In this document: positions 35,601-63,886 of the stretch, piece after piece
Layout of the letters: every line of letters starts with the position of its first letter
Numbering within the stretch: position 1 is the stretch's first letter
Virus genome (UHGV): UHGV-1558314
Strand: one strand, 5' to 3'
Origin: a virus
DNA: 64,000 nucleotides
The notes under the pieces: model-generated
What the model saw: only the letters and a program-made list of their open reading frames with translations
What the model was told of the DNA's origin: nothing
Database searches by the model: none
Translations under genes and position numbers: made by a program

Positions 35601-36931
35601 GTCAAGGTGACAACAAACCCATTACGTGCAACAGTAGAATTGTTGTTTGTCACTGTGACATTCAAGCCAGACAAGCTGTAGCCTGTTGCAGCAGTTTTGA
35701 CGGCAGCAGTCCATATGCCGCCTGACGTGTTACTATCAGTTGAGCCGCTGCTGTATGTCATTGACTGCGTAAATGTTGCAGATGCATTAGCTGCAACAGT
35801 TTGACCTGCTACTGCAAGAGCAACTGGTGTTGTCTTTGTAATGACTGGTGTGCCGTATGTAATGCTGTTGGCTGCTTGTGTAATTGATACAGTAGCAGTT
35901 GCATTGCCATATGACGCTGTGCCGCTAAATGACCGAGCATCACCGACAGTCTTACCACGATTTGCAGATGTTACAGAATTTGCAGATATTGTAAAGCCTG
36001 TTGCAGTGCCTGTAATTGTTGGCTTGACATTTGTTTCAGTAGATGTAACAACACCGTTCCATGTCACAGTGTACGTACCAGTGATGGTTGATGTTCCACC
36101 TGCTGCAGTATGACTTGTTGAATATGTGTTCAAAGCAAGTTTGTACACAACTGAACCTGCAGCTTGTGAGCATTTAACGGTCTTCGATAATTCATGACCA
36201 CTTACAGTCAGTGTTGGTGTAACTGCTGCAGTTGACGTGTTGTTCGGTGTATTGACAGTGATTGTTGCAGGACCTGTGCCAGATGCTTTTGAGACTGACC
36301 AACCTGCAGGTACGCCCGAAATTGTCCATGCAAAGTCAGGATTACAAGAAATTGCGAATGTCTTCGATTCACCCTTTGCAACAAATGACAAAGTTTCTGG
36401 TGATACTGCCAATGTTGCACTTGCACCAGCTTGATTTACTGTAAATGTTGCAGACTTGCCACCAGGCGTTGACAATGTGAAAGTGAATGCCTTTGCAGCG
36501 ATTGCAGTATGTGCAGCAATCTGCACTCGTACAATGACTTCAAATTCTGCATTGACACCAGGGTCATTGTCAAAATTTGTATTAAGCGCATAATCTTTGC
36601 TTGCAACAGTTACGCCAAGCACTGTGCCACTTGCAGTACCGCCAGTACTGCCAAGCACAAGTTTTTGTGCATTTGTGACACATTTCAATGTTGCAATAGT
36701 GCCACCATTTGACGCAATGTTTGTAGATGCAACTGTAGCTCGTATAGTTTCACCAGGAGACTCTTGCAATACTGCACAGTTTTCAGTTACTACTGGTGAA
36801 CCTGTAGTTGTTTGCGCAGTAAAGCTGCCAGACCTGTTATTTCGACCAGTATGCACAGATGCTTTGACAGACAACTGTGAGTTGCCTGTGCCAACATCAG
36901 GTGTAACTGTCAACCAAGTAGGCTTTGCCAT
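32603..36931 (-). CDS. giant Thr/Ser-rich repeat protein with N-terminal BACON-like domain and many tandem Ig-like repeats (probable fibre/adhesin)
   Basis: N-terminus MAKPTWLTVTPDVGTGNSQLSVKASVHTGRNNRSGSF; repeated ~90-aa units ending NGKSASK....YQAAN. Confidence 0.6.
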   Translation of the reverse strand: MAKPTWLTVTPDVGTGNSQLSVKASVHTGRNNRSGSFTAQTTTGSPVVTENCAVLQESPGETIRATVASTNIASNGGTIATLKCVTNAQKLVLGSTGGTASGTVLGVTVASKDYALNTNFDNDPGVNAEFEVIVRVQIAAHTAIAAKAFTFTLSTPGGKSATFTVNQAGASATLAVSPETLSFVAKGESKTFAISCNPDFAWTISGVPAGWSVSKASGTGPATITVNTPNNTSTAAVTPTLTVSGHELSKTVKCSQAAGSVVYKLALNTYSTSHTAAGGTSTITGTYTVTWNGVVTSTETNVKPTITGTATGFTISANSVTSANRGKTVGDARSFSGTASYGNATATVSITQAANSITYGTPVITKTTPVALAVAGQTVAANASATFTQSMTYSSGSTDSNTSGGIWTAAVKTAATGYSLSGLNVTVTNNNSTVARNGFVVTLTVTANGKSASKDITFNQAAGAKVYATPVIGTFSYANIAPAGGTSNPTVSYSQVWTWNGVAGSGGTLTSGATLSYAMTAKSRWTLNTTSGALTVTSMGTSYVGSTDASNAVTVTVAINGKSATKTATATQTANSKTLNGLTLTPGAATLAAGGGSTTITSTASYTYASGSTSSAAVSATLSGSATGFTLSTATVTAANRTTVVGAERSITISGSYTEGGVTKTGSCTVKQVANTVSYGAVTISSFTVADIPVTGGTIKSGNVSYSQTATYTSTSTQNITTGATISYSPAAGITASSLGTTVKPRTKIGTLTVTVALNGKSASKAADVYQAAQSAGTVTYSDITVNLTPSATIIAASGGSVKSGTVTYSQVKTTTYATGEKTTETLTSGGTIEYTSTVTAQSKDTAISNQTTAGTLTVKVTMNGKSASKSATIYQAGNYVTALNIAVGSMSYPAIAAGGGTSTPSNGANTVTYHFSSGSTSTTAPASTYGSLSTTTSYSWPGASGLFTALNTSTGAITASSKGTTASGATTSLTVTKTVTATWTPTASYNAAGTKAISGTKTATASQNANAATYGTPTVSMTYSDVPAKGGSVTPSVSFSQSVMWSSGSTQTVTSGGSKSWSGTGVTTSTGAVSGSSLGTTAKARTKITTSTVTVTVNGKSGTKAVDVYQAANAITTYGAVTISGGTVSDIPAGGGEVASMSGISASQTITYTSGSTRPGSVSIAYSTKVSASSLGTTVKARTKIGTLTATATGEGSKTATKALDVYQAANSVSYSAVTVTTATSYATFAAAGATKTPTGTPAYSQTATYTSGSKTTITSGGTISYSMATTTGFTLNSSTTGSLTAANRGTTAGSARTATVNMTVALNGQTGSKAITATQEANSVTSTTKTLIVSSTVTSFGAAGGTATLSTTGRTVTKYTTGQSTTSDAAVTPTYSSNNGAFTISGSTLSAANNWGSDNSRSATITAALSGYTSGTVAVSQSGNGLAIPNMVVGTSFLVR

Positions 36932-42446: not shown

Positions 42447-44057
42447 TCAACATTCTACATACGAGCCATCAGTGTTTTCAACAAGCACTTTGATGCTCAA
42501 GCCCACATCTGTGCCTTGCTGACTTCTTATCAATGGCACAATGTTTTTTGATTGTGGTGCAATGTTGCCCATATTGTCAATGTGCTCGTCATTGCCAATA
42601 AACTGTACATCCACTGATTTGATGACATCAAGCTCTTCAAGTTTTGCAATTGCAGCAGAACGACTAACGAATGTCGATGCATTTGACCATGAGTCTTCTA
42701 CAAATGTTTTTGCAGCATCAAGCAATTGCTGCTTGACGTCTTCTATATTTTGCAGTACTGCGGTCTTTTTGACAAGAATGAGCATCTGATAAAATTCAAG
42801 TTGCACAGTGTCAAATTGTACATCAGTTAGCAGCACATAGTCACCAGTGTTTTCAATAGCATTGTTCAGATATTGTCTATCTATAGAGTCAATCGTAAAT
42901 TCTGCTATTGGCAATGACCAGTAGTCATACACTATTGAGCCTGCTTTGACATACTTGTCTGCAATGTTGGGCACCAGTACAACATGAATTGTCTGAGTCT
43001 CTGTATTTGACCAGACATCAAGTATCTTATACTGGCCAAAACGTGACATGAATGCTCTGATTGAATCTGCTGAGTGCAACACAAGTGCCCTGTTAATTGA
43101 GCCTGCATGTGAACGTATCGATTCGATGTCTTCACCATTGTAACCACCTACAATGTCTGTCAACTGTTCAATGACTAATACACCCTTTGGGCTTACAGCA
43201 GTAGTGTTTGCATCATACATGCCATTGACCCATTCAAATGTTGCATCATTGTCAATCAAAATGTTTCCTGCATAGCCCTCACATGCAGTGTATTCTACAT
43301 TGACGACTGCATTTTGTGCAGGAATTTGACCAGCAGTACCATTGCCAAACACAATCTGTAGTTTGCCATCATATGACCAGCGTTCAATGTACCCCTTGCT
43401 GTATCGGTCCATTTCATCAAACCCTGCATAGCAAGTCCACAGCTCATTGCCAACTGTGACAGTCAATGAATCCTCAGACACAATCAAGTTGCGCTCTTCG
43501 ATAGTGAATGTTGTCATTGACTCACCATCAGAAATATATTGCTGAGACTTGCGTTCACCTTGTCTAACTGCGAATTCATATCGTACACCCGTCAACTCAT
43601 TGTTGATGTTGAGTTGCGCAAAGTCTTGATGCATGTCGATGTAGTACATCAGCGAGTTCTCTTTGCATTTAATTGCAGCATATCGCTTAATGAACACAGT
43701 CGGGCCAAGCTCTTTAACTGCGTCATATGAAAAACTTAATGCAATTTTGCCTGATGCTGCAATGCCACCAACACATTTGTAGCATGCAAGCTGCGCAAGA
43801 CCTCGTACAGATGCAGTTTGTTCTGCAGTAAGCAAGTTGTTTTCTTTTGTGCCTACTACAATTTGCGTAAAGATGAGTGACGCAAGTTCTCTGAAACTCT
43901 GAACAAGAATTCCAAAAATTGTATATTTGCCATACTGCTTCTTTGTAGAGTTCAGCAAATTCTGCAGCCAAGTATCTATAGACTGTGACACGCCTGAATA
44001 TGACATTTGCATTTTCTGCATCCATGTCATATTGTCACGAGTGTTATTTGTGCGCAT
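42447..44057 (-). CDS. hypothetical protein, probable virion protein (start trimmed to ATG at 44057)
   Basis: ORF-track N-terminus (to 44159) reads through a 30-bp tandem DNA repeat (CAHSKRxIL x2); first plausible ATG downstream is M35 at 44057. Confidence 0.45.
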   Translation of the reverse strand: MRTNNTRDNMTWMQKMQMSYSGVSQSIDTWLQNLLNSTKKQYGKYTIFGILVQSFRELASLIFTQIVVGTKENNLLTAEQTASVRGLAQLACYKCVGGIAASGKIALSFSYDAVKELGPTVFIKRYAAIKCKENSLMYYIDMHQDFAQLNINNELTGVRYEFAVRQGERKSQQYISDGESMTTFTIEERNLIVSEDSLTVTVGNELWTCYAGFDEMDRYSKGYIERWSYDGKLQIVFGNGTAGQIPAQNAVVNVEYTACEGYAGNILIDNDATFEWVNGMYDANTTAVSPKGVLVIEQLTDIVGGYNGEDIESIRSHAGSINRALVLHSADSIRAFMSRFGQYKILDVWSNTETQTIHVVLVPNIADKYVKAGSIVYDYWSLPIAEFTIDSIDRQYLNNAIENTGDYVLLTDVQFDTVQLEFYQMLILVKKTAVLQNIEDVKQQLLDAAKTFVEDSWSNASTFVSRSAAIAKLEELDVIKSVDVQFIGNDEHIDNMGNIAPQSKNIVPLIRSQQGTDVGLSIKVLVENTDGSYVEC

Positions 44058-44083
44058 ATCAGTTAATTTGTTTGTATATGTAT

Positions 44084-44160
44084 TCGAATGTGCACACATG
44101 AGAATAGGTCTCTTCGAATGTGCACATATGAGAATAAGTCTCTTCGAATATGCGCACAAA
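44084..44160. repeat. tandem direct repeat, 30-bp unit x2.5
   Basis: tcgaatgtgcacacatgagaataggtctct / tcgaatgtgcacatatgagaataagtctct / tcgaatatgcgcacaaa. Confidence 0.8.
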
Positions 44161-46987: not shown

Positions 46988-47884
46988 TTACAGTGTTCCG
47001 CAAAGCAATTCACGTAAATCCATGCCGGCTTGTGTACTGTACTGAGCAATAAGATTACGTTCTGAATCAGACATACTCCAATAAATCTTATGCAGAGCTC
47101 TACGAATAATAGTATGAATGCCAGATGTGCTACAATTGAACTTCTTTGCAAGTTCTGCATGAGTTAACAAATCAGCATCGCCAAGGCCATACACATGTGT
47201 GAGTACAAGCTTTTCATTTTGAGTGAGTTGTTCAAATGCTCTTTGCAGAATCTTTGTGATACGTTTGTGAGCATCTTCGATTTCAAGAACTTCTTGGCCT
47301 GTTTTGAAGTCTGACCTCAAATCATTCTGAACTGGTGACCATGCGTCACCATCTTTGTCAAGTGTAGTGTCATCCTTGCTGATGAATTGCTTGCCTTCAA
47401 GAGCTCTTTCATATGCTCCACGAATACCAGTAGATAATTGTTGACTTGTCAGATTGAGTTCGTCAAGCACATATTTCTTAATCCAAGGATATGCATATGT
47501 GCTAAACTTTGCTTCACGAACTCCTGCAGGCAATACGCCTTCTACGTAATTCTTGGCTGCTATTGACAATCCAAGATTGCCTGCTTGAATGACGTCATCA
47601 AATGGAACCGAGCGTTTGCCAGATGCGAACCATAAGCTTCGTGCAACTGATATGACCAATCTTAAACAAGATTTGATAAGAGCTTCACGATTTTCTTGAG
47701 TCTTCTTGAATCGAGTAACATCACAATATCGCTTTGCAGTAGCCAGCGATTTGACTTCTTCAGGAGTAAGCTCATTCTCCATCCTCATTTGCTTGAGCTC
47801 TTCCTTTGTGTATAGACGTTCTCTTGTGATTCTACCTACGTCCTTTACGTAGCCTTGATTGATTTGTGAATTTGAACCTGCCAT
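46988..47884 (-). CDS. sigma-70-family RNA polymerase sigma factor
   Basis: Region-2-like LRLVISVARSL...FDDVIQAGNLGLSIAAKNY; region-4 helix-turn-helix LTQNEKLVLTHVYGL...LTHAELAKKFNCSTSGIHTIIRRALHKI. Confidence 0.75.
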   Translation of the reverse strand: MAGSNSQINQGYVKDVGRITRERLYTKEELKQMRMENELTPEEVKSLATAKRYCDVTRFKKTQENREALIKSCLRLVISVARSLWFASGKRSVPFDDVIQAGNLGLSIAAKNYVEGVLPAGVREAKFSTYAYPWIKKYVLDELNLTSQQLSTGIRGAYERALEGKQFISKDDTTLDKDGDAWSPVQNDLRSDFKTGQEVLEIEDAHKRITKILQRAFEQLTQNEKLVLTHVYGLGDADLLTHAELAKKFNCSTSGIHTIIRRALHKIYWSMSDSERNLIAQYSTQAGMDLRELLCGTL

Positions 47885-50895: not shown

Positions 50896-53800
50896 TTATC
50901 GTACGATGAATGGCTTGTTGGTATCTTCAATAATCATTGAGCCAATGCCATGCAACTCTTGAGTAACCTCGACAGATACGTCTTGTGCAGTGTTGTACGA
51001 GCACTTGAATGCTGCAACTCGACTAAATGCGTCAATGTCTGAGTAACTGAGTTCATCGACTTGCATTGAGATTTCACCAATTGCTGGCGTAGTCTTTGAT
51101 GGCGTAATTGTGATGTCATGCAGCCAACCCGGATTGCCAACTATGACTGCTGTCAATGATTCGCCATCAATAGGATTGACGATTTCATAGTTGAAGTTTA
51201 GTGTCTTTGCAGCATCATCAGTTGTTGCTGATGCAGGTGTAATGTTGATTGTTGTTACGCCTTTAGCAGCTTGAACAACTTGTGCAGTGACATCTTGAGC
51301 ATTGATGTGAGAGAACTTAACTGAGCAGCTACGTTGTTCTATCGTTAAGTTGCGGTCACATTCAATAGTCAAGTAGCCCTTGCCAGTATTGTCATCGTAT
51401 TCGAAGTTTGTGTCAGTAAATGTGCCGTCATTATCAAGAACTTCATATGACAATTGCTGCCCTGCAATTGGATTACTAACAGTGATTTCGAATTGTGCTT
51501 GAGTGTCAGTTGACTTCAATTGAGCATTCATTGGCTCAACAATTATCATTGATACACCTTGAGCTGCTTGTGTGATGCTGACCGTTACATTGTCAGCAGT
51601 CATGTATGACAGTCTCAAGTATAAGTTACGAGTAGCTGTTGCAGTGTTGATGTCAAGCGCAAATTGTATTGTGCCAGCTGACATGTTTACTGCAGGTTCG
51701 CCAACAAAGCCAGAGCCCTCTGCTGTAACTGTTAATGTTTCGCCTTCAATAGGATTAGTGATGCTAAAGTTAACTGTGAACGAACCGCCATTAGCTGCTG
51801 CGTTGATTGTCAATGGTTCAGCATTGATGACTGTAGCTTCTTTAGCTGCTTGAGTAAGCAATACTGCTACATTGTCAGCAGTTGGATATTGCAGTACAAT
51901 ATTTGCTGTACGAGCAGTTGTTTGCAATGTCTTGTCATAATCAAATGTAATCTTGTCATCAGCAACTTGAACGTTGTGAATCCAACTTTCTGTAGCATAT
52001 GCAGTGACTGCTGCACCAGCAAAGCCATTACGAATTTGATATGCAATTTCAGCTGAACCACCAGCTGCATTAAGTGACATAGAGCTTGTGACAATGATTT
52101 CGGGTCTTGTTGAAACACCTGTGCTGTATTGAACAACAGAAGCTATTACACGAGGCTCAAATATAACAGCATTTGCAGAACCGCCAAATGTAGGTGTTGC
52201 AATCACATAGATTGGCCAAACTCCACTTGATGCGACATTACGTAAGATTGCTTGATAATGCAGTTCATTGCATGCATCTTGCAATTCACTCCACGTTTTT
52301 GTAGTGTCAATTGATGTCAAGCATGCTGGCAATACTGCGCATGTTGATGGCTTATCAGCATCAATTTGTGTTGCAGCACCACCTGATACTGGTCTGTAAC
52401 TCAAGTCGACTTTAACAGATGCATAGCCATTGCCATACACAATAAATGGCACTGTGATATCGAGCAAAATATCTACAGTTGCAGGCATGTTCAGATATGC
52501 TGGCAGTGGTACAAGCGTTTGCATTGCTGTCGTGCCTGGCACATGGTCATCGAATGATTCAACATACACAGGTGGTGTCAAGTCATCTTTATGCGCATAT
52601 TCTGCATGAGTGTGGTCTGAATGTGATACTGTGCTTGCATAACCAGACCCAGCAAAGTCTTTATTGAATGCAGACTTCTTTGCTTCTTCAGTCAATCTGC
52701 CGGAGCCATCATATGTCAGCACAGTATTTGATGAGCCAATACCTGCCGCAAGATGATTTGAGCCATCAATGAAGACATGCTTGTATTGACGTTCAAACAA
52801 ATGAGCATCAAAATTGTCAAATATCGAATTGAACAACTTTTTGACTGCAGATGCTGTAGGCAGATGCTTGTTTGCATTTGCGCCATCGATAATGATGCTT
52901 GACCAATTGTCTGAGCTCTTGAAGATGCTAAGAAGCATATCAACAACTTTGCCAGTAGCATCTGTGCCAAGAACACTTGCACCGGGCAGTTTCATCAATT
53001 GCAAGTCGACTGTTGCAGCAAGTTTAAGCAACTGCTTTGTCAATGTCAGAATGTCTGTGACAACTCCAGCATCTGACAATGCTGCAATGCGATATGACTG
53101 ATTGATGAGTTGCGCAAACTTATATGCACGAATGAATGACTCTCGCTTTGCTTCTGCATCCAAGCCTTTTGCCAAGAACAACTCATCATATTTCAGATTT
53201 GCATATGACAATATGTCAAGCTCATTGACTGCAGATGTAAAATGATTGCGAAGTCTAATGCCCTCATATGACTGCCACAATGCAGCCAAATCAGCAAATG
53301 ACTTGACATGTGAATCATCTGATGCAAAGCCAAATACAAGACCACTGTTAAAGTCATTTTGCAGCAGCATATGCGGAAAAGCATCAATGCCTGGCAACTG
53401 ATTCTTTTTGTCTGCATCAAGACGATTCAGTGTTCGTTGTGTGAGGTCGTAATAGTAATATGGATTGCCCAATATCTGCATAACTGGCTTTGCTACTTTG
53501 TTGTTTGCATTGCCAAGTCCATCGATTTGTGTATCACTCGGTGCAAGCAGAATAACTGAGCTGTCAACGTTATTGTATCGAGGCACGCTTTCAAGCCCTA
53601 TTGACAACGCACCTGTATGCTTGTTTGAGTAGTTGTTGTCGATTTCTGCGCCAGGCTGCCCGTCTGCAGCAATGTTGAACATTGCTGCATATGACTTGAT
53701 TGTGCCGCCATACTTTGTTTTGATGAGCTCTTCAATGATTTGCGTAATGATGACATTCAAGTTATCATTGTCACTTGTCAGCAATTGCAAGCCCGTAAAT

Positions 53801-54303
53801 TGCCACCATTGAGCATCATTTGATGATGCATCATACCAGTACACCTTGCCATCTGGTGCAATGACCCAGTCTGCGTATGACAAAGCGTCTGTATGCAAAA
53901 TGTTGCAAAACGCAGGTTTGTTTGCATCTGAACAGAACTCATTGAATGCTGCAGCATCGACAACTTTTGCAGTACCTGCGTCATTTTGCGTAGCTGACCA
54001 ATCACTGCCAAACACTGTATTTATATCAGCAAGTGATGCGTACATAATGCGGTTGCCTCGATAGCCATCGAAGCCAGGCAAGCCACGGTCGCCAGTTTCA
54101 CCAATGCGACCCTTAAATAGGGGTGAATTCACAATTCTACTGAAATTGTAATTCAAAATTTCACACAACTCTGCATAAGATGTGACTTGAAGTTTTTTCA
54201 GTACAATTGGCTGTGCTTTATGTTCTGCAGACATGTTGTTCAGATATTTTGCTTTGTATATGTATTCGAGACTTTGTTGAGAATCGTCTGTCACTATGTG
54301 CAT
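50896..54303 (-). CDS. tail-fibre-like protein with short collagen-like Gly-X-Y run and C-terminal tandem Ig/BACON-like repeats
   Basis: GRIGETGDRGLPGFDGYRG (6 Gly-X-Y triplets); repeated units ...ADNVTVSITQAAQG / ...AQDVTAQVVQAAKG. Confidence 0.55.
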   Translation of the reverse strand: MHIVTDDSQQSLEYIYKAKYLNNMSAEHKAQPIVLKKLQVTSYAELCEILNYNFSRIVNSPLFKGRIGETGDRGLPGFDGYRGNRIMYASLADINTVFGSDWSATQNDAGTAKVVDAAAFNEFCSDANKPAFCNILHTDALSYADWVIAPDGKVYWYDASSNDAQWWQFTGLQLLTSDNDNLNVIITQIIEELIKTKYGGTIKSYAAMFNIAADGQPGAEIDNNYSNKHTGALSIGLESVPRYNNVDSSVILLAPSDTQIDGLGNANNKVAKPVMQILGNPYYYYDLTQRTLNRLDADKKNQLPGIDAFPHMLLQNDFNSGLVFGFASDDSHVKSFADLAALWQSYEGIRLRNHFTSAVNELDILSYANLKYDELFLAKGLDAEAKRESFIRAYKFAQLINQSYRIAALSDAGVVTDILTLTKQLLKLAATVDLQLMKLPGASVLGTDATGKVVDMLLSIFKSSDNWSSIIIDGANANKHLPTASAVKKLFNSIFDNFDAHLFERQYKHVFIDGSNHLAAGIGSSNTVLTYDGSGRLTEEAKKSAFNKDFAGSGYASTVSHSDHTHAEYAHKDDLTPPVYVESFDDHVPGTTAMQTLVPLPAYLNMPATVDILLDITVPFIVYGNGYASVKVDLSYRPVSGGAATQIDADKPSTCAVLPACLTSIDTTKTWSELQDACNELHYQAILRNVASSGVWPIYVIATPTFGGSANAVIFEPRVIASVVQYSTGVSTRPEIIVTSSMSLNAAGGSAEIAYQIRNGFAGAAVTAYATESWIHNVQVADDKITFDYDKTLQTTARTANIVLQYPTADNVAVLLTQAAKEATVINAEPLTINAAANGGSFTVNFSITNPIEGETLTVTAEGSGFVGEPAVNMSAGTIQFALDINTATATRNLYLRLSYMTADNVTVSITQAAQGVSMIIVEPMNAQLKSTDTQAQFEITVSNPIAGQQLSYEVLDNDGTFTDTNFEYDDNTGKGYLTIECDRNLTIEQRSCSVKFSHINAQDVTAQVVQAAKGVTTINITPASATTDDAAKTLNFNYEIVNPIDGESLTAVIVGNPGWLHDITITPSKTTPAIGEISMQVDELSYSDIDAFSRVAAFKCSYNTAQDVSVEVTQELHGIGSMIIEDTNKPFIVR

Positions 54304-54321: not shown

Positions 54322-57300
54322 TCATTGCCACTCTACAATGCACCTTGCTGCACCTTGTTGAGCTTCAAATTGCACTGTGATATATGAATTTGAACTGTCT
54401 CTGTTCAATGCAATTGGCATGATGAGCTGACCTGTAAAGACATCATAGAATGTCAATGTTGGTTGCAGCAGTTTTGCAATCAAGTAATTTGCATATTGCA
54501 TTGATTTTGCATTGTCACCAAGCAACTTTGCAAGTGCAGCTACAAGCGATAAACGCTGTTCTGCACCAGCAACATCAGGTAATTGCAGTTCTGCTGTTTT
54601 TGTTGCAGCAACAGACATAATTGCTGCGAACATGCAAAGTTCAAACACTGTAGGGCCTTCGATATGCTCAAATGCGCCATCAAGCCAAACTCTCGACAAT
54701 TGCGTTGACAATGGGCTAATAACTTGTTCTACTGTAAGAACTTCATTGTCAATCAATGCCCACAAATGAACTGAACTTGACTGAGCAAACGCTACTTTGT
54801 GCTGCAAAGACTCATCATTTGCAAGCGCAGACCATTGCGTAACTTGAGTCAATTCAGGCAGACAATATGTGCCATATCGAGTCAAATTGACAAGCAGCTT
54901 ATTTGTTGGACTTGCATTTGCAGGGTCTGCATCAATGATTTGCTGCTGCATAAACTTTTGCATTACTGCAATTCCGTCAAGCGCATTGATTGCATCACGT
55001 TGATTGTAGAATGCTATTGGCGCGAATCTGTGAATCATTGTTTGCATTGTTGGCATGACTTGCATTACAATGCTTGTCATCATTGACTCAAGAATTCGTG
55101 GTCTAACAGAGCCCTCAATAAATGCATCGACGTCATTGTCAAATGTCACAGCAAGCTCTGTTTGTATCATATGTTGAGGCCAACTGTATGTTTCACCAGA
55201 CTCGTATTCAATTGATGGAATGATGTCTTTGACCCAGATGATTGCTTCTGTGTCATTCAGCAAGTTCACTTCAATTACATCGAATAATTGTACAAATGCA
55301 GTCTTATATGCTACTGCACTTGTCCAGTTTGTTATGTCAAGTTTGACATTTGTGCCTACAATGAAGATGTCCTTAATTGAGAACAAGTTTTGCAATGCAA
55401 TAACTTTGATTGCAATGTCAATTGAGCCGTCATCATTTATGACGATTGGCTTGTCTACTGTAGTGCCTTTGTATGGAAAGCTTGCGACAGTTTTGCTAAG
55501 CGGATAACAGTTGAATGCTACATCTACTTGTGCAATTTTGTTGTCATCAAGAGCAACAATGCTTGAATTGTCATAGTAGATGCTTTTGTCAATTGCAGTT
55601 GTTTGCAAAATGCCATCAAGATTGACAAGAGACTGGTCAATGACTTTGAATGGCAGTACAACTGTCAATGTTTTGAACTTGTTGTTGATGACAAGCTGCG
55701 GTTTGCATTCAAATACGCTGTCACTGTCTACTCTGACTACTGCAAAGCGCCAGCCAACATATGATGATGACACACTGTACTCAACGCCCTTGAACAATGC
55801 GAATGCAGTGATATGGTCTGGCTTGGCGTAGCAGTATGTGTAGCATGGCACTTCAAGAACAGCCTTGTCAGTTACAGCAAATTTATGTGTCAGTTTTGTG
55901 TCAAATACATCGATAGTAGTGTCAGCAAACTCTTTTATGTCAATTGCTTCTGTAGCATATGACTTGCAAAGCAGTTTTGCATGCTGATGCTGCAGCACAT
56001 ATTCAGGGCAGCCAGACCCTTCAACAAACCAGCTATAATTAAATGAATCCAGTGCAATGCCTGTTAAGCGTTCATATGGCGCAAACCCTGTGCAGTTGAA
56101 TGCTATTGAATTGTTTGCTCTGTATTGCTTGTTCAACGCATCAGTAGCTTCAACTGCAGCAAAATGGCATTGATGAATATTGGGCTTGTTGTCATCATTA
56201 ACTGCAAGGTCGTCAAATCTGTCATAGACAGAATCAGAAAATATCAATGCAGAGTCTTTTGACTCAAGAGTCTTGATTGCGTTTGGTTGTGAGTTGCCTT
56301 GCAATTGCTTAACATGCTGAGCTATTGCATCAATATATTGCATACGTTTTGACTTTTCTGCTGCAGCAGTCATGTTAGTAGCCCATGCATCAATATCGAA
56401 TTCTGTGTTTGTTGTCAGTCTCAATTCAGACTCATAGAAGCCTGACCAGTCATACACATCATGCAATCTGCAAAGTCTGGCTTGTGCAGCTTGAATTTGC
56501 AGCATGTCAAATGCAATTTTGACTGCAATGTCTGGTAGCACATCATCTACAAGCACTACAAGCGAATCAGTAGTTGTCAATGACTCATCAATTTCTGAAA
56601 GAGTCAACAATTGACGAATTCGTACTTTAATTGTATCAGTGTCATTAAGATGTAGCAACAATGCATTTGCAGTTTGCAAGTACTGTCGCATTGTAGCACT
56701 AATGACAAGTGAGTTGTTGACAGTAACTGCTGCATCAAATTGCACAGTTTGGCTGCTGTACGTGCTTTTCTTGTACATAGACCATGGCAGCAAAACTTCA
56801 ATGTCAACATCATTTGAGTTACAATTTGTCTCAATTCGTAGTCTTGGATTGCTTTCTGCACTGTACTTTGACGATGGCAACACTGTTACAGTGTAGTCAT
56901 ATGTAGACTTTGCTGATGCATTTTTGAATGCTTCAATGAATCTGTCAATGCTTTCTTGCCAGTTTAGACCAAACAAGAATTGATTGTCATCGACTGTTTG
57001 GCCATCTTCCCATGCATACAGACGTTCGCCATCGATGCCAGCATCTTTCATCTGACAAACAACTTGCACATCGACATTGCCATCTACAATGATTTCGAAT
57101 TTTTCACCAGGCGTCATTTTGCCCGTCAATTCCAAATCAAGTGTTCGCTTTCGTGTAAATGTGTTTGGCTTAAGCCCATCATTTGCAGAAAATGATGCTA
57201 CAACAGTTTCTGCATACAGCTTAGATGAATCAAGCAATGTAGGCAATTTGACAGTGTAGCCATCAATGTATGTCAGCAAGCCAAGCGCATCACCAGATAC

Positions 57301-58119
57301 ATATGCATCAATGAATGGCAAATGTGACAATGACATCGTTGGCGTCCACTCTGTCATTTGAGCATCTGACACATACAAGCCGACATATCGATGCTCACCT
57401 GGAGTGACATCTTCAAATTCAAATGACAAGTTGACAATTTGCGAGCATATCAGACCATTGTCTCGCCAAGCTTCTGATAATGCAGCATCAAAGTCATATG
57501 GCGACAATTCTGCGTCATCAATGTTTGGCGCACCAAGTGTGACATCTTTGTATTGCGCAGTGACTGCATCAAAGCCCCATACACGACTTTGCTGATTGCT
57601 GCTATGTGACACAAAACATGCAGCTTCAGACATTGATGCTTGATGCTTTGTCAACTCAACAATGTCTTTCAATCGCCATTGATGAACAAGTACAGCGTCT
57701 TTTATGATGCTTTGCCAATCTGTTGCAGTTAAGTTATCTGAACGCAATACAACAAAGTATTGTGGCATATCTGTCTTTGACAGCAACAATGGTGCAAAAT
57801 ATCTGAACACATTGAGTCGCTTCGTATATCTGCAGCCACACACATATGTCATATCGAACTGTTTTGCAAGTTCGTCATTTTGCTGCATGCCAATGAGTGT
57901 GCTTTGTTGCACATTGCAAATCTTCGATATGCCCCACTTAAGACGAGACCACATTGCAGCAGCATTGTCTGCATATGAGCCTGCATTCGAGTCAAACTCA
58001 AGTGAACTTGAATTTGTAAGTGGCGCAAACTTGACTTTGCTATACATGTCTACAATGCATTGTACATCGCCAGACAGCAATGTATTTGTGCGAAACAGTG
58101 CTTTTGATTCGTGTATCAT
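54322..58119 (-). CDS. large virion/tail protein, function unknown
   Basis: 1265-aa ORF between the fibre-like and TM-rich giant proteins. Confidence 0.5.
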   Translation of the reverse strand: MIHESKALFRTNTLLSGDVQCIVDMYSKVKFAPLTNSSSLEFDSNAGSYADNAAAMWSRLKWGISKICNVQQSTLIGMQQNDELAKQFDMTYVCGCRYTKRLNVFRYFAPLLLSKTDMPQYFVVLRSDNLTATDWQSIIKDAVLVHQWRLKDIVELTKHQASMSEAACFVSHSSNQQSRVWGFDAVTAQYKDVTLGAPNIDDAELSPYDFDAALSEAWRDNGLICSQIVNLSFEFEDVTPGEHRYVGLYVSDAQMTEWTPTMSLSHLPFIDAYVSGDALGLLTYIDGYTVKLPTLLDSSKLYAETVVASFSANDGLKPNTFTRKRTLDLELTGKMTPGEKFEIIVDGNVDVQVVCQMKDAGIDGERLYAWEDGQTVDDNQFLFGLNWQESIDRFIEAFKNASAKSTYDYTVTVLPSSKYSAESNPRLRIETNCNSNDVDIEVLLPWSMYKKSTYSSQTVQFDAAVTVNNSLVISATMRQYLQTANALLLHLNDTDTIKVRIRQLLTLSEIDESLTTTDSLVVLVDDVLPDIAVKIAFDMLQIQAAQARLCRLHDVYDWSGFYESELRLTTNTEFDIDAWATNMTAAAEKSKRMQYIDAIAQHVKQLQGNSQPNAIKTLESKDSALIFSDSVYDRFDDLAVNDDNKPNIHQCHFAAVEATDALNKQYRANNSIAFNCTGFAPYERLTGIALDSFNYSWFVEGSGCPEYVLQHQHAKLLCKSYATEAIDIKEFADTTIDVFDTKLTHKFAVTDKAVLEVPCYTYCYAKPDHITAFALFKGVEYSVSSSYVGWRFAVVRVDSDSVFECKPQLVINNKFKTLTVVLPFKVIDQSLVNLDGILQTTAIDKSIYYDNSSIVALDDNKIAQVDVAFNCYPLSKTVASFPYKGTTVDKPIVINDDGSIDIAIKVIALQNLFSIKDIFIVGTNVKLDITNWTSAVAYKTAFVQLFDVIEVNLLNDTEAIIWVKDIIPSIEYESGETYSWPQHMIQTELAVTFDNDVDAFIEGSVRPRILESMMTSIVMQVMPTMQTMIHRFAPIAFYNQRDAINALDGIAVMQKFMQQQIIDADPANASPTNKLLVNLTRYGTYCLPELTQVTQWSALANDESLQHKVAFAQSSSVHLWALIDNEVLTVEQVISPLSTQLSRVWLDGAFEHIEGPTVFELCMFAAIMSVAATKTAELQLPDVAGAEQRLSLVAALAKLLGDNAKSMQYANYLIAKLLQPTLTFYDVFTGQLIMPIALNRDSSNSYITVQFEAQQGAARCIVEWQ

Positions 58120-58124
58120 GTCTC

Positions 58125-61100
58125 TTATTTGTGTACTTTTATGCCTGCGCCTTCAAGCAATTCGAAGATGTCAATCAATATCGACATTACAGGATTTGAC
58201 GGGTCATCAGCAAACTCTGCATACTTGTCTGCGCCTTCTACAGGATTGCTTTCAGTGCCAAGCTTGAGCATAGGCTGCATTACACCAGCAGTTGCAGGCA
58301 ATGCATTCATTGAGCTGAAGTTGTCTTTGTCAGTGTCCTTGTTCAAGAATGACTCAAGAGTGTCGAACAGCTTCTTGAGTGATTGAACAAGCGGCCCTTC
58401 TATCGTTGCTGCAACTTGTTTGAGTCCTGCAATCATTTCTTGTGATTGCAATGATTTATATTGAATGTCGAGCTTTGTCAACTTTTCAAAGTTGAGTGAA
58501 TTGATTGCAGTTTGAATGTTCTCAATGTTTGTTGCAGTAGATTGCAGTTCTTTATTACGTGTATCCAGGTTGCCATCAGCAAGAACATCAAAGAATGCGT
58601 CAAGAGATTTACCAACTGTTTGCACTCTATATGTGTTAATGCCTTGCATGCCATCAAACATTGATACGATAGCGCCTACTGCAGCTTTTGCTGTTGGCGC
58701 AAATGTCTTTTCAATGTAATTGACATCAATCTTTGATTGTGAGAAGCCTGTTATGAGATTGACAAGTGGGTCAAGAATTGTACCAATGCCGTCAAAGCCC
58801 TTCTTTGCTTGTTGCATGCGTTTCTTGAAATCTTCACGTTCAGCAGCATTTATGCAAGCATTTACAAGAGAATCAATGACTGATTCAAGACCTGCGCCAA
58901 CTTTTGGTAATGCTTCAGACAAATCAATCGTGCCTACGACTACAAGTTCACCATTTCGAGCTTCATATTTTGGGAACACAAGAGTCGCCATGCCCTTGAT
59001 GCCCTCAGACAATTGATATACGAGATTGCCAAGACCTGACAGCGCGTTGATTGCTTTCTTAGCACCCTTTGCTTTGTCTTCAACGCCATCAAGAGCATCA
59101 ACCATGACCTCAATGAACGTTGCAAGATTGTTGCCAATGCTTGCAAGTTCAGCATCAGTCAAGTTGACTTCTGACATTGTTTTGATTGTCTTTGCAAAGC
59201 TAAGCATTGACAAGCCTACAGCACCAAGTGCTGTGGCGCCAGCAAGCGTAAATGGCAATGTGAATGGGTTGCCTGTCACAGTAGCAACGCCTACTAAAGC
59301 TGCAACAGTGCCAGCAATTGATGCAACATCAAGGTCTTTGACTGTCTGCATCTTTTCAAGTGCAGTAGCAAAAACATATGTTGCAGCACCAGTAGCTGCC
59401 ATAGCAGCTGCACCAAGCAATGCAAGTGGACCAACCAAGCCAAGCGCAGTTGCTGCAGCAGTTACAGTAACTACAAATGCACCAAGTGCAAGCATTGTAG
59501 TGCCATCAACAGATTGAGCTTTGACAAGAGCATTTGCATACATTGTAGTGCCGACTGCAGATAATACAAGTGCAGCGCCACCAAGCAACGCAGTCGCACC
59601 CATATTGCCCAGAATTGCAATTGCGCCAACATTTGCTGCAATAAACAAGCCCATCATGACAGCAGTCTCACCATCAACAGCATTTGCAATCAACAATGCG
59701 CCAGCAAGCAATGCAACGCCAACTGAGGTAATTATAAGCGCACCAGCAGCCATAAGCGGCGAGCCCTTGCTTGATAGAGCCATCAATGCTGCAAGTGCAC
59801 CAGTTACAACTGCAAGTGCTGCACCAGCTTTACCCATGTCTTCCCAATCAAGCAATTTATATGGCAACATTGCAATGCCAAGAATGCCAACTGCTGCAGC
59901 CATCACAATAACACCAGTAGCAATTGACAGCACTTGTTTGCTATCTTTTGCTACTCTTGTCATGACTGTAAATATCGTAGCAAGCACACCAATGCCTATG
60001 CCAGCTTTAATCATGTCTTCTTGCTCAACAATTCGCCAAGCAAATACGCCAAGTGCAAGTACACCAACCGCTGCAGCCATAGCAAGCACGCCTACACCAA
60101 GCTTTTGCATATCACCATCTTTGCCAGCAAGACGATTTGCGCCAGCCATTGCCAATGCAAGCGTAGTAATTGTTATTGCAGGCGCAAATGCATATGTGTA
60201 ATCAGGGATGAGTTCGTGCCAAGCCCAAATTGACAATGCAAGCACTGCTATTGAACCTGCAATCATCATCATTTGAGCGCCAATGCCACCCTTAAGATTT
60301 GAGCCCTCTGTCTGCATTTTGCTAAATGCTTCAGCATTACCTTTGCCAGCAAGCGTCATACCAAGACCTGCGCCGGCAGATGATATGCCATTTGCAAAGC
60401 CAATTGCAAGACCCAATGCAACAATGACACCGAAGATTAAGCCAACGGATTCCCAGCTTGCTTCCATCAATTCGCCTGCAGCAACCACTGCAAGCACAAA
60501 CAGAGCAATTGAGCCTGATAGCATCAGCATTTCTTTGCCCACTGCATTCTGCTGGCCTTTCTTGCCGCTGCCTGAACCAAACAACGATTCACCAGACAAT
60601 GCTTTGCCAAGTACCCAGATTGCTCCACTGACAGCAAGTAAAGCAACTGAGCCCATAGCAACACCGTCCCACGACACATTACTAAACAGCATCATTGACA
60701 ATGCGACCATGCTAAGTGCGCCTGCAATCATCATGACGTTCTTTGCACCAGCTGATGCATCTTTGTCAGTGATTTTGCCAATTGCCCAGTATGCTGCAAT
60801 GAATGTCATTGTGCCAAGCGTGAACATTCCAAGAGCTTCAAATGTCACAAGTTGGCCAAACGCCCATATTGTAAGACCCACAAGAGCAATTGCTGCAGCA
60901 GCTTTCATGACAACCTCTGTTGTTCTATCAAGAGATGCCACAAGTGATTCAACTTGGCTGACCATGTCAGCCACTGCAGTCATTGACTCTTTATGAGATT
61001 TCAGAGTTTCAGCAGCTTTCAAATACGAATCGACAAGCTTATTCAAGGCTGTCTCAAATCTTGGAGCAGCCTTTTCAAGCCTGTCGACAATCAAATCGAT

Positions 61101-61847
61101 AGCCTCAAGACCGCTTTCAAGCTGCAACCGTTTGACAGGCGACATATTTGTCAAAGAGTCAATGATTGTCGCAAAAGCAGTAGCTATCGTGCCCATTTTT
61201 GGGTCAATGTTGGGCGCATTGCTTGCATTGGCCTTGCTGTTTGCGATTGAGTCTTTTTCTTGACGTTCTGCAATGACGTCTGCAAATGTTGTCAAGTCAT
61301 CGAGTTTTGATGACATCAATGCAAAGATGTTGCGTTGATTTTCCTCGATAACTTCAAGATAGACTCTTACAAGGTCACAATGTTGTGTAAATTCAGTATG
61401 CTGTGATTCAACATGCTCTGCAATCACATCAAGCAACACAGAAGCATCTGATATGTTTGTTGCAGCAGCTTTGTTTTCAATATGCTCTGCAATGATTTCG
61501 AGCAATGCGTTTGTGTCAGACAATAATGCAGATACTGATGTTGCTGAAGATGATTCGTCTGTTTGCAGTTCAGATATGATTTGAGCAAGACCAGCAAACA
61601 TATTTGTTTCTGCACTCGAATCTTTTTCTTTCCATGATTGATACAAAACTGCACCAACAGTTGAGCACAATGACGCAACAATAGTGTCATTGCCAACAAT
61701 TGACATGAAAGTGTTTTCAAGCTTTGTCAGCTCATCATCACTGACATCAGTCGAAGATGCTGACGACGTGTCAGCATCTTCGAACTCTTGCCAGTTTGTT
61801 GGCTTGTCGCCTGTAGAATCGTAGACGTTTGTTTTGTCTTCAGCCAT
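58125..61847 (-). CDS. giant protein with N-terminal coiled coil and about 20 Ala/Gly-rich hydrophobic helices (tape-measure-like or membrane-spanning ejection protein)
   Basis: Residues ~330-900 are almost continuous hydrophobic A/G/L/V/I/M segments (e.g. AAAIALVGLTIWAFGQLV, IAGALSMVALSMMLF). Confidence 0.5.
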   Translation of the reverse strand: MAEDKTNVYDSTGDKPTNWQEFEDADTSSASSTDVSDDELTKLENTFMSIVGNDTIVASLCSTVGAVLYQSWKEKDSSAETNMFAGLAQIISELQTDESSSATSVSALLSDTNALLEIIAEHIENKAAATNISDASVLLDVIAEHVESQHTEFTQHCDLVRVYLEVIEENQRNIFALMSSKLDDLTTFADVIAERQEKDSIANSKANASNAPNIDPKMGTIATAFATIIDSLTNMSPVKRLQLESGLEAIDLIVDRLEKAAPRFETALNKLVDSYLKAAETLKSHKESMTAVADMVSQVESLVASLDRTTEVVMKAAAAIALVGLTIWAFGQLVTFEALGMFTLGTMTFIAAYWAIGKITDKDASAGAKNVMMIAGALSMVALSMMLFSNVSWDGVAMGSVALLAVSGAIWVLGKALSGESLFGSGSGKKGQQNAVGKEMLMLSGSIALFVLAVVAAGELMEASWESVGLIFGVIVALGLAIGFANGISSAGAGLGMTLAGKGNAEAFSKMQTEGSNLKGGIGAQMMMIAGSIAVLALSIWAWHELIPDYTYAFAPAITITTLALAMAGANRLAGKDGDMQKLGVGVLAMAAAVGVLALGVFAWRIVEQEDMIKAGIGIGVLATIFTVMTRVAKDSKQVLSIATGVIVMAAAVGILGIAMLPYKLLDWEDMGKAGAALAVVTGALAALMALSSKGSPLMAAGALIITSVGVALLAGALLIANAVDGETAVMMGLFIAANVGAIAILGNMGATALLGGAALVLSAVGTTMYANALVKAQSVDGTTMLALGAFVVTVTAAATALGLVGPLALLGAAAMAATGAATYVFATALEKMQTVKDLDVASIAGTVAALVGVATVTGNPFTLPFTLAGATALGAVGLSMLSFAKTIKTMSEVNLTDAELASIGNNLATFIEVMVDALDGVEDKAKGAKKAINALSGLGNLVYQLSEGIKGMATLVFPKYEARNGELVVVGTIDLSEALPKVGAGLESVIDSLVNACINAAEREDFKKRMQQAKKGFDGIGTILDPLVNLITGFSQSKIDVNYIEKTFAPTAKAAVGAIVSMFDGMQGINTYRVQTVGKSLDAFFDVLADGNLDTRNKELQSTATNIENIQTAINSLNFEKLTKLDIQYKSLQSQEMIAGLKQVAATIEGPLVQSLKKLFDTLESFLNKDTDKDNFSSMNALPATAGVMQPMLKLGTESNPVEGADKYAEFADDPSNPVMSILIDIFELLEGAGIKVHK

Positions 61848-61856
61848 AGTGTATCA

Positions 61857-62111
61857 TCAGAACTTTGGCAGTTCAAAATTGTTGTTGAACTTTGGCATTG
61901 GCAGACTTGTCGGCATCATTGACTTTGCTTTGCGCATGTACGCATCTTGTTGAGCCTTGATGCTTTTATGAGTGCTGCTTTGTGAATCACCATCGCCCTT
62001 TCGAGCCTCTTCTTCAGTCTTGATAAGCTCAAGAACATCATCAAGTAGCCATTGATATTCATAATATGGCAATGCGTCCAATTCAGAAAACTGAAGAGGG
62101 CATTTTTGCAT
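61857..62111 (-). CDS. hypothetical small protein (start trimmed to ATG at 62111)
   Basis: ORF-track start 62255 overlaps upstream gene by 128 nt; internal ATG at 62111 (MQKCPLQF...) lies 17 nt after the upstream stop. Confidence 0.4.
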   Translation of the reverse strand: MQKCPLQFSELDALPYYEYQWLLDDVLELIKTEEEARKGDGDSQSSTHKSIKAQQDAYMRKAKSMMPTSLPMPKFNNNFELPKF

Positions 62112-62127
62112 GATGTATATGCGATTC

Positions 62128-63150
62128 TTACAAAAGTTCCGATTCGAGATTTTGAACTGGTTGAAAAATCTGCTTGATTCCCTCTGGAAATCGAAACGGG
62201 GCTTCACCCTCCATGTGACACTTCGGGCAAGTGAACTTGATATTGTTAGATGCAAGAATCATGCACTTAGACAGAATCTTCAGTTTAAGCGGCAATTCTT
62301 TGAATGCATCCATTGCTTGGAACGATTGACAAATTTGCTCAGCTTTCTTGACATTAAGACCTCGCCAATCAGGTGTAAGCCATTGAGCTGCAAGAATATA
62401 TGTCTTTGCATTCATCAATGTATCTTTGTCAAGTGTTCGCATGTACTCTGCAAAAACTTTGCCAACACCAATTGTCGACGGCTTGAGTACGAGTTCGCCA
62501 TACGAACGAGTTTGAACTCGATAGCAGCCGGTTTCAGAATCAATGTATTTGTCCATTGATTCATCGGGCTCATCCCAAGTCATGTTATCAGCAGTCAAGT
62601 CAAGCTTGAAATTATGCTTGCAAGTGCCTGATGAAATTTCCAGCGTAATTGGGTTTGTCAGCTCAGAGTTCTCAGGGAATGTGAGGTCGTGAATCAACAT
62701 TATTAAGCGCCACTTGTCGTGTTCGTATACATCATCAACTGACCAATGATTCATGCCGGACTTGCTGACACATCGAACACACACCTTAACAATGTCGTTC
62801 AAATATGTTGCTGCTTCAGCTGGATTTGCATTGTCATCAAGATTAGACCAATGACGAATTTCACCTGCTCGGCAAGCTCGATAGATAATTTGCAAATCAC
62901 TTGGGTACAGTCGACCTTGCTTAGCAAGCTTCGTCATGTCAACATTGAACCAGCCAGTGTCTGTAACTTCTGATTGACGTGCTCTTTCTGCAATACGCTC
63001 TTGAGCTACTTCAGTTGCAGCGTCAATTGCGCTGTCATTGATTTTTGTAGCTGCTTCAGCTTCTTCTACTGCAGATGCAAGTGGATTGTTTCGACCTGCA
63101 TTCTCACCACCATCTGCTGGAATGCTAAGACGTTTTCTTTCTTGTGGCAT
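62128..63150 (-). CDS. hypothetical protein (start trimmed to ATG at 63150)
   Basis: Internal ATG (MPQERKRLSIP...) avoids a 74-nt overlap with 63182..63886. Confidence 0.45.
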   Translation of the reverse strand: MPQERKRLSIPADGGENAGRNNPLASAVEEAEAATKINDSAIDAATEVAQERIAERARQSEVTDTGWFNVDMTKLAKQGRLYPSDLQIIYRACRAGEIRHWSNLDDNANPAEAATYLNDIVKVCVRCVSKSGMNHWSVDDVYEHDKWRLIMLIHDLTFPENSELTNPITLEISSGTCKHNFKLDLTADNMTWDEPDESMDKYIDSETGCYRVQTRSYGELVLKPSTIGVGKVFAEYMRTLDKDTLMNAKTYILAAQWLTPDWRGLNVKKAEQICQSFQAMDAFKELPLKLKILSKCMILASNNIKFTCPKCHMEGEAPFRFPEGIKQIFQPVQNLESELL

Positions 63151-63181: not shown

Positions 63182-63886
63182 TTATATATTTGACAACTGT
63201 TTGCGTTGTAAAATTGCATGACCGCAGTCATATACTGCAACATAGCCAGCATCAATCATCTCTTGCTCATTTTGTCCGCAGTCTTCAACATGTTCTTTTG
63301 TCTTCAAATGACACCAGTGTTTGCAAATAGTTGACTTGTCATCTGACAATTGTGGATTGAACGCGAAGTCAGTTGAGTCTACTGGTTCGCCTGCAAGATG
63401 CTTTCGAATGACATCGATGACTTCATTGTCATCCATCCATTCAAATATTGTTATGCAAGTGTAGCCATGCTTAAGAGCAAGCTGAGTTTTGTCGAAGTGA
63501 TAGAATTTGCTAACATGCTTATTGTGTGTAGTACGGCCAATTAAATATGCAAAACCATATGTTGAATTGTGTGACCAAGTTGGATTGATTTCAATCAATA
63601 ATTTGCAATGTTCATTACTGTAATTGAGGTCATATGACCATCGCTCAAGATTGACATCATCAAGCCCACAATCAATCCCAAGTTCTTGCAGCAATTTGTC
63701 ATGCCACCAATGGTTTGCTCGTGATTTTACATGACCTTGAGCATCACGACATTTAGCAGTCATACAAAAATATGGGACACCATAGCGTTGCATGTTAGTT
63801 GACGCAATTTTTTGCAAATCGCCTGCAGCAGACCCATATTTTTGTCGTTTTGTTGCAACTGCTACTGCAATATTGCCAAATGACAT
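63182..63886 (-). CDS. homing-endonuclease-like protein (short RYG repeats plus Vsr/DUF559-like nuclease domain); paralog of 21853..22989
   Basis: C-terminal ~170 aa are about 90 percent identical to 21853..22989 (WWHDKLLQELGIDCGLD...KLLIEINPTWSHN...); two QKYG/QRYG repeats at N-terminus. Confidence 0.5.
   Translation of the reverse strand: MSFGNIAVAVATKRQKYGSAAGDLQKIASTNMQRYGVPYFCMTAKCRDAQGHVKSRANHWWHDKLLQELGIDCGLDDVNLERWSYDLNYSNEHCKLLIEINPTWSHNSTYGFAYLIGRTTHNKHVSKFYHFDKTQLALKHGYTCITIFEWMDDNEVIDVIRKHLAGEPVDSTDFAFNPQLSDDKSTICKHWCHLKTKEHVEDCGQNEQEMIDAGYVAVYDCGHAILQRKQLSNI

Follow-up and report, generated by a model that had tools for sequence, protein, structure and literature searches.

The window analyzed here, a stretch of 64,000 nucleotides from UHGV virus genome UHGV-1558314, encodes a protein of 1240 amino acids that is very likely a tail tape measure protein, the ruler that sets the length of a phage tail. 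It falls in a family of tape measure proteins that is unannotated and confined to PAU-like jumbo myoviruses of Bacteroidota; this is a known kind of protein rather than a new kind. Orthology, synteny, the ratio of protein length to tail length (the ruler ratio), and architecture carry most of the weight of the assignment; the most conspicuous element of the architecture is a long central block of hydrophobic helices. Coordinates of this gene, of the regions of its product, and of other features of the window are collected in Table 1.

An earlier note on this DNA, made from the sequence alone, had described about 20 consecutive Ala/Gly-rich hydrophobic helices in the protein, spread over about 570 near-continuously hydrophobic residues. 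Measurement agrees closely: the block, residues 312-882, is 571 residues long and contains 19 hydrophobic segments in a 19-residue Kyte-Doolittle scan, with just one weak segment (residues 50-68) and one at the C-terminus outside it. Ala (19.7%), Gly (12.8%), and Leu (12.6%) are prominent in its composition, and charged residues make up 9.8% of the block versus 23-24% of the flanks. The check that the note had proposed, on whether the helices are amphipathic or membrane-spanning by hydropathy, came out on the membrane-spanning side. The segments are non-amphipathic (hydrophobic moment 0.04-0.19, mean Eisenberg hydrophobicity 0.59-0.87), there are 15 runs of at least 17 residues without any Asp, Glu, Lys, Arg, His, Asn, or Gln, and for 12 segments the summed Hessa insertion energy does not exceed 1.5 kcal/mol. 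By the same scans, the tape measure proteins of lambda (gpH) and TP901-1 show 2-4 Kyte-Doolittle segments and 0-2 Hessa segments. The hydrophobicity of the block is far beyond chance or typical background, and homologs keep the block both at 59% identity and at identities of 29-39%. Secondary structure assigned by DSSP to AlphaFold2 (AF2) models is 80% helix and 1.3% strand; helices within the block have a median length of 24 residues and a start spacing of 29 residues, and their ends carry Trp. Loop charge in the window protein alternates strictly over 12 loops of the block. Strict alternation was considered as a family property and rejected, as relatives do not keep it.

The block is built from tandem two-helix units of about 57 residues, of which a jackhmmer unit profile finds seven copies in the window protein (residues 314-752) and 5-8 in relatives. 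About three degenerate two-helix units follow beyond residue 752 and continue up to residue 882. Autocorrelation of hydropathy peaks at a lag of 58-60 residues, at 0.355 compared to a shuffle mean of 0.18 and a shuffle maximum of 0.352. A BLASTP self-comparison detected no internal repeats in the protein, and the repeats are seen only by unit profiles and autocorrelation. C-terminal to the block lies a unit of a different kind, about 85 residues long with helix/beta-hairpin/helix structure, which occurs once in the window protein (unit profile E-value 2.5e-20) and in 1-8 copies across 74 relatives. It holds the most conserved window of the clade alignment (0.74) and the sole beta-hairpin in the AF2 models. 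The number of hydrophobic segments in the family has a median of 14 and a range of 7-26. Such modular length variation, through 5-8 two-helix units and 1-8 of the ~85-residue units, is typical of rulers. The window protein shares the full family architecture: the two-helix array, the ~85-residue unit, a conserved C-terminal helical tail, and homology that extends beyond the block.

Residues 1-311, on the N-terminal side of the block, are acidic (54 Asp plus Glu versus 23 Lys plus Arg) and predicted by AF2 to be helical, with one helix of 71 residues. The earlier note had placed a coiled coil here, which is plausible; its helical character is borne out, but the heptad periodicity is marginal, with 9 of 300 shuffles equaling it, and a 3.6-residue period is stronger. 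The stretch of residues 8-27 scores 0.64 in the clade alignment, which places it among the best-conserved windows of 20 residues, and we infer by analogy that it is a candidate docking end of the ruler. The extreme C-terminus is conserved as well (ADKYAEFADD..NPVMSIL..) and is a candidate for the end that docks at the baseplate hub. A ruler with a docking site at each end would be expected to conserve both extreme termini, as is seen here. In the tape measure protein of TP901-1, 154 N-terminal and 60 C-terminal residues are required (PMC5099701).

A protein identical to the window protein is also found on metagenomic contigs of about 175 kb, and a scan of IMG/VR for related loci returned one 96%-identical contig of 174.6 kb plus four short fragments. 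Close homologs number eleven at 95% identity or higher and one at 59%. An exhaustive HMMER search enlarged the set to 92 relatives, most of them 880-1320 residues long. Matches by phmmer are not limited to the hydrophobic block but continue into the soluble C-terminal domain (residues 892-1139 of the query, for example), and the 92 relatives therefore represent true homology. A tblastn search with the window protein and a megablast search with 24 kb of the window found no matches among GenBank phages. Searches by tblastn that started from more typical family members did find orthologs, in Chryseobacterium phages MA9V-1 and MA9V-2, in PAU, and in Tenacibaculum phages PTm1, PTm5, and pT24. The window protein itself matches MA9V1_009 of Chryseobacterium phage MA9V-1 (phmmer E-value 4e-56) and PTm1 ORF-027/028 and, by way of these orthologs, PAU gp97. 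The host of "Sphingomonas" phage PAU is actually a Sphingobacterium (PMC3738902), and all known hosts of the cultured relatives are therefore Bacteroidota. The window is most likely part of a contractile-tailed phage of Bacteroidota with a genome of about 175 kb, kin to the jumbo myoviruses PAU, PTm1/PTm5, pT24, and MA9V-1/2.

None of the orthologs is called a tape measure protein; existing labels are "hypothetical protein", "gp97", and "ubiquitin-like proteins". The last of these, on the second of two PTm1 open reading frames (ORFs), looks like a misannotation. Ortholog lengths are 1082 residues for MA9V1_009 and MA9V2_061, 1096 residues for PAU gp97, and 925 residues for pT24 BPT24_118. In PTm1 (AP019524) the ortholog is split into ORF-027 and ORF-028 (10373-13023 in L008), which overlap by 4 nucleotides; the PTm5 ortholog likewise comprises ORF-027 and ORF-028. 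Since pT24 has a single ORF of 925 residues (7192-9969 in L019), the split may be a frameshift, a sequencing error, or a genuine two-piece ruler. The cultured orthologs have the same layout as the window protein, namely a helical N-terminus, a two-helix hydrophobic array, ~85-residue units, and a helical C-terminus. They differ in carrying 14, 11, and 7 hydrophobic segments versus 19, and two of the ~85-residue units versus one; the window protein is the longer.

Gene order in the cultured phages points to the same role. An annotated sheath gene and a tube-sized gene of about 185 codons, common to all three phages, lie upstream of the ortholog in PAU, PTm1, and MA9V-1. A conserved protein of about 300 residues and small ORFs come next, then the ortholog, and then very large tail/baseplate proteins. 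This position is the canonical tape measure slot. The local order in MA9V-2 (305 residues, 58 residues, then the ortholog) matches that in the window, while the pT24 ortholog stands by itself on its strand in a different context. In the window, every sizeable ORF is on the minus strand, and the neighbors of the tape measure-like gene map one-to-one by phmmer onto MA9V-1: the proteins of 340, 84, 1265, 1135, and 540 residues correspond to MA9V1_006, 007, 015, 016, and 019, the last pair with an E-value of 8e-112. The downstream half of the slot is thus present in the window, with the 1265- and 1135-residue proteins followed by a gp6-like wedge, and that wedge gene, in the same transcription unit, marks the unit as a tail/baseplate module. 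The 1240-residue protein is encoded by the sole all-helical giant ORF of its module.

Published tail lengths make it possible to relate protein length to tail length. The quotient is 1.57 Å per residue for MA9V-1 (170.3 nm, 1082 residues), 1.53 Å for MA9V-2 (166 nm, 1082 residues), and 1.70 Å for PTm1 (150 nm, 883 residues for ORF-027 plus ORF-028). A curated tape measure protein with a similar hydrophobic array, gp22 of Arthrobacter phage Circum, gives 1.53 Å per residue (228.1 nm, 1492 residues). An extended alpha-helix would give values such as the 1.53-1.70 Å per residue of the orthologs. The hydrophobic block makes up about 45% of the MA9V1_009 chain, and the remainder would be too short to span the tail as an alpha-helix; the hydrophobic helices therefore appear to lie end to end in the virion rather than folded back on each other. 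Circum gp22, with 19 hydrophobic segments and 1.53 Å per residue, likewise shows that, in an accepted tape measure protein, blocks of this type contribute to the ruler. A tail of about 190-195 nm is predicted for the phage in the window. An unusual tape measure had been one of two identities suggested in the earlier note, and it fits the orthology and synteny, the length ratio of the orthologs, and the mostly alpha-helical structure. The other, a channel-forming ejection protein, found no support as a separate protein that is not a ruler.

There are sequence links to annotated tape measure proteins. The window protein is matched by PHROG 4372, "tail length tape measure protein", with an E-value of 6.3e-10 over residues 525-896 only, a match confined to the hydrophobic block, and 10 of 30 relatives are matched as well. 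Annotated tape measure proteins in 475 phage records are homologous to P0077, a distant relative. An hhalign comparison to Circum gp22 yields a probability of 98.3% and a score of 125 over 332 columns. A Foldseek search of BFVD gave orthologs along with many entries named "tail tape measure", yet with TM-scores of 0.1-0.2. A search of PDB sequences with the clade profile gave only noise (FtsX, E-value 0.02), and Foldseek of the AF2 model against PDB found no match at an E-value of 0.001 or below.

Several observations weigh against the assignment of a tape measure role. Every sequence link to annotated tape measure proteins passes through the hydrophobic block, and the Circum sequence, when reversed, still scores 63 versus 125, with a probability of 90% (local shuffles score about 30). 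About half of the Circum signal is therefore composition and periodicity, and the link is suggestive only. Comparison by hhalign of the family to T4 gp29 gave a probability of 0.2%, and comparisons to lambda gpH and the TP901-1 tape measure protein gave 0.2% and 0.8%. No Pfam family matched the window protein at an E-value of 0.1 or below, and none recurred in 30 relatives; there was likewise no relevant NCBIfam model, where the curated tape measure models considered were PF10145 (PhageMin_Tail), PF06791 (TMP_2), PF09718, and TIGR01760/TIGR02675. The ruler relation consists of four literature measurements by negative stain, one of which (PTm1) comes from a split gene, and the tail lengths are those of orthologs and Circum, the phage in the window being itself uncultured. 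A look for virion proteomics of the orthologs found none, and for MA9V-1 found SDS-PAGE only. The AF2 models have a predicted local distance difference test (pLDDT) score of 52 at full length and 59 for the C-terminal model, and we therefore used their secondary structure alone, with no inference of fold or three-dimensional structure. Against the membrane step described below, the homolog at 59% identity lacks conserved alternation of loop charge. Finally, no sheath or tube gene is present in the window or in the 10 kb upstream of the module, where a terminase (on the opposite strand) and a ligase are encoded. In PAU, PTm1, and MA9V-1 no more than about 10 kb separates the sheath and tube genes from the ortholog downstream of them, and the tail module in the window therefore appears to be rearranged.

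If the protein is a tape measure, its life in the virion might proceed as follows. During tail assembly, several copies would be stretched along the lumen of the tube, essentially all alpha-helical as the ruler ratio suggests, with the baseplate hub anchoring the conserved C-terminus and with the N-terminus, also conserved, at the top of the tube. The helices of the roughly ten two-helix units would run end to end in the virion instead of folding as hairpins, with their greasy faces buried against each other and possibly against a chaperone (perhaps the 340- and 84-residue proteins encoded upstream). By analogy with T4 gp29, T5 pb2, and HK97, sheath contraction would drive the protein out in front of the DNA. 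The 24-residue helices may then adopt a new fold, as hairpins that span the host cytoplasmic membrane, where they would form or line a conduit for DNA. By that analogy, formation of a membrane channel after ejection is plausible; the full mechanism, a tape measure with a membrane step after ejection, falls in our judgment just on the likely side.

A spacing of 29 residues at 1.5 Å each is about 43 Å, which fits a bilayer span and also roughly one rise of a tail tube ring, and so does not discriminate between a membrane role and a packing role. One might go further and propose a dual-register device, in which the 29-residue spacing would match the ring rise while the protein is in the lumen and the ejected helices would snap into hairpins as a self-sufficient transmembrane conduit of unusual size, able to carry very large genomes through the cytoplasmic membrane of Bacteroidota. 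We rate this as rather unlikely. As part of that same speculative proposal, the expansion would be specific to this jumbo myovirus lineage, as compared to the single transmembrane segment of T4 gp29, and each tail would hold 57-114 apolar helices if the protein is a trimer or hexamer.

The array could instead serve only for self-packing in the lumen and for chaperone binding, in a tape measure that has no membrane role and, once ejected, is discarded or degraded. By the ruler ratio the block is in use as an extended helix in the virion, the ~43 Å periodicity of the helices is explicable by the tube-ring rise without a membrane, the alternation of loop charge is unconserved, and a gene pair encoding 340 and ~60-85 residues, possible chaperones, is upstream in all relatives examined except pT24. 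An experiment on TP901-1 also speaks against the membrane step: the second hydrophobic region of its tape measure protein can be deleted with infectivity intact, and the authors favor recruitment of chaperones (PMC5099701). On the other hand, the segments of the window protein are fully apolar and non-amphipathic, 12 of them with favorable insertion energy, and segments of about 24 residues with Trp at their ends are what bilayer spanning selects for. The transmembrane segment of T4 gp29, moreover, has been placed in membrane-associated density, and the protein has been proposed to make the genome channel (bioRxiv 10.64898/2026.03.06.709160). A role restricted to packing and chaperone binding strikes us as rather unlikely, and a tape measure that also acts at the membrane remains our preferred reading.

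Two further explanations would take the protein out of the ruler role altogether. It could be an ejected pore-forming or pilot protein, of the podovirus kind, with the tail length set by a different protein. Extreme hydrophobicity would suit such a protein, as would the failure to match classical tape measure families and the location of the gene after terminase-proximal genes rather than after sheath and tube. However, no other helical giant ORF is present in the tail modules examined, the match of 1.53-1.70 Å per residue in three phages would have to be a coincidence, and in long-tailed phages a separate ejection protein of such size besides the tape measure protein is not known; we regard this explanation as improbable. 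More improbable still, to the point of being hard to credit, is a non-virion polytopic membrane protein, such as an assembly platform or a factor in superinfection exclusion or lysis, encoded among tail genes. Nineteen transmembrane-like helices with strict charge alternation over 12 loops are what co-translational insertion would call for, but relatives do not keep that alternation, and the protein has neither a signal peptide nor similarity to transporter families. It also has about 670 residues of soluble helical flanks with conserved termini, and its block repeats in simple tandem, which a folded transporter does not. The tail-module position is kept across four phage lineages, and the ruler ratio holds.

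Table 1. Features of the window discussed in the text, with the evidence for each.
Feature	Coordinates	Strand	Evidence
Putative tail tape measure gene, 1240 residues	58125..61847	-	ATG at 61847, stop at 58125-58127
Acidic helical N-terminal region, residues 1-311	60915..61847	-	Composition, AF2 secondary structure (low confidence)
Conserved N-terminal motif, residues 8-27 (VYDSTGDKPTNWQEFED...)	61767..61826	-	Clade alignment
Hydrophobic block, residues 312-882	59202..60914	-	Hydropathy, hydrophobic moment, and insertion-energy scans
Seven tandem ~57-residue two-helix units, residues 314-752	59592..60908	-	jackhmmer unit profile
~85-residue helix/beta-hairpin/helix unit, residues 930-1007, core "FPKYEARNGELVVVG"	58827..59060	-	Unit profile
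Helical C-terminal region, residues 1008-1240	58125..58826	-	Alignments, AF2 secondary structure
340-residue protein, C-terminal CxxC	62128..63150	-	PHROG 36717; phmmer E-values 4e-39, 9e-20, 3e-18
84-residue ORF directly upstream of the tape measure-like gene	61857..62111	-	Similar to MA9V1_007/MA9V2_060, phmmer E-values 1e-4 to 7e-6
1265-residue mixed alpha/beta protein, downstream	54322..58119	-	MA9V1_015 ortholog, phmmer E-value 4e-25
1135-residue protein	50896..54303	-	MA9V1_016 ortholog, phmmer E-value 9e-18
Baseplate wedge subunit, gp6/J-like	42447..44159	-	phrog_219, E-value 1.7e-21
RNA polymerase sigma factor, among tail/baseplate genes	46988-47884	-	phrog_351, E-value 3.8e-26
1442-residue Thr/Ser/Ala-rich protein	32603-36931	-	About a dozen tandem beta-type repeats, each ending "...GKSASK..VYQAAN"
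1308-residue metallophosphoesterase/SbcC-like fusion	1849-5775	-	phrog_35725, E-value 7e-113
Homing endonuclease, adjoining SSB and helicase genes	21853-22989	-	phrog_3339, E-value 3.7e-10
234-residue HNH/homing endonuclease-like ORF, upstream of the tail module	63182-63886	-	Weak phrog_559 and phrog_3339 matches

Directly upstream of the tape measure-like gene is the pair encoding 340 and 84 residues, the shorter ORF at a gap of 16 nucleotides and in the +1 frame. The 340-residue protein precedes the tape measure-like gene in every cultured relative examined except pT24, its counterparts being PAU gp93, PTm1 ORF-022, MA9V1_006, and MA9V2_059. It matches only a PHROG of unnamed function, and the 84-residue ORF has no family match; Pfam and NCBIfam scans of the neighbors were likewise uninformative. 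Both proteins are candidate chaperones for the hydrophobic protein, although for the 84-residue ORF this role is a guess. No slippery site for a frameshift of the G/GT type was seen on reading the upstream sequence, for which no formal scan was made.

Downstream, the 1265-residue protein has no match in Pfam, PHROG, NCBIfam, or PDB and from its position is a probable component of the baseplate or hub. The MA9V-1 ortholog of the 1135-residue protein was annotated as a short tail fiber by its authors (PMC10537231, Table 2). The 1135-residue protein also has a sub-threshold match to the BACON domain (E-value 5.9e-4, 20.2 bits versus a cut-off of 25), which is consistent with a Bacteroidota host. 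The 1442-residue protein, with no family match and no hydrophobic segment, is probably a fiber or decoration protein. Head fibers occur in PTm1 and PTm5, and mop-like tail fibers in PAU. The 1442-, 1265-, and 1135-residue ORFs were each considered as alternative rulers and rejected on composition, which is beta-rich or mixed. A sigma factor gene sits among the tail and baseplate genes of the window, and MA9V-1 has an RpoS-like ORF23 a little downstream of its tail genes. The slot of the HNH-like ORF is occupied in the phage with a 95%-identical ortholog (P0005) by a different ORF, of 436 residues (L002 7352-8662), which suggests a mobile insertion site between the terminase and tail genes.

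The assignment offers a likely function for a conserved gene that is unannotated or mislabeled in every cultured PAU-like jumbo phage, and it describes a gene family outside all Pfam and NCBIfam models. It also provides a predicted tail length for an uncultured gut-type phage of about 175 kb. The family constitutes a natural series, in which hydrophobic segments number 7 to 26 and the C-terminal units 1 to 8; the series bears on whether hydrophobic repeats of tape measure proteins insert in membranes or are packing or chaperone elements only, and on whether tail length steps by one repeat unit. MA9V-1/2 and PTm1 offer a tractable system for the role of these repeats. The series adds to an active question rather than opening a new one.

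Among known systems, the ejection proteins of podoviruses (T7 gp14/15/16, P22 gp7/16/20) are carried in the virion and re-fold into a conduit across the envelope at infection. They are stored in the capsids of short-tailed phages and are not rulers. No search found any sequence relation between them and the window protein. The tape measure proteins of lambda (gpH) and TP901-1 are more similar in kind: they are long and mostly helical, measure about 1.5 Å per residue, have essential termini, and vary in length via repeats. Their Kyte-Doolittle segments, 2 in gpH and 4 in the TP901-1 protein, are five to ten times fewer than in the window protein. TMHMM predicts 6 transmembrane segments for the TP901-1 protein, and infection was unimpaired after removing the second hydrophobic region, which its authors attribute preferentially to chaperone binding (PMC5099701). 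Both genes are preceded by chaperone genes with a G/GT-type frameshift; none was noticed upstream of the gene in the window, where no formal scan was made.

T4 gp29, the tape measure and baseplate hub subunit of a myovirus, shares with the window protein the proposed role of ruler in a contractile tail. It has an N-terminal coiled coil, a transmembrane segment, a helical-bundle domain, and a C-terminal docking loop. At 590 residues it is half as long as the window protein, and it has one predicted transmembrane segment (residues 207-246) versus 19. That segment was assigned to membrane-associated density at the tip of the tube, and a genome channel was proposed (bioRxiv 10.64898/2026.03.06.709160).

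Circum gp22, one of the actinophage siphovirus tape measure proteins that carry long blocks of hydrophobic repeats, has, like the window protein, 19 hydrophobic segments by Kyte-Doolittle scan and a two-helix periodicity of about 57-60 residues, and the turn motif D/S-W-E/K-x-L/M-x-K-G/A occurs in both. Circum differs in being a siphovirus of a Gram-positive host, and gp22 has no ~85-residue beta-hairpin unit; the similarity is confined to the hydrophobic block. Circum gp22 is also less strictly apolar, with 4 uncharged runs versus 15 and 9 Hessa segments versus 12. The statement in the earlier note that the protein is far more membrane-like than a typical tape measure holds in comparison to lambda, T4, and TP901-1; with the 19 segments of Circum gp22 taken into account, the hydrophobic array of the window protein is extreme but not unprecedented.

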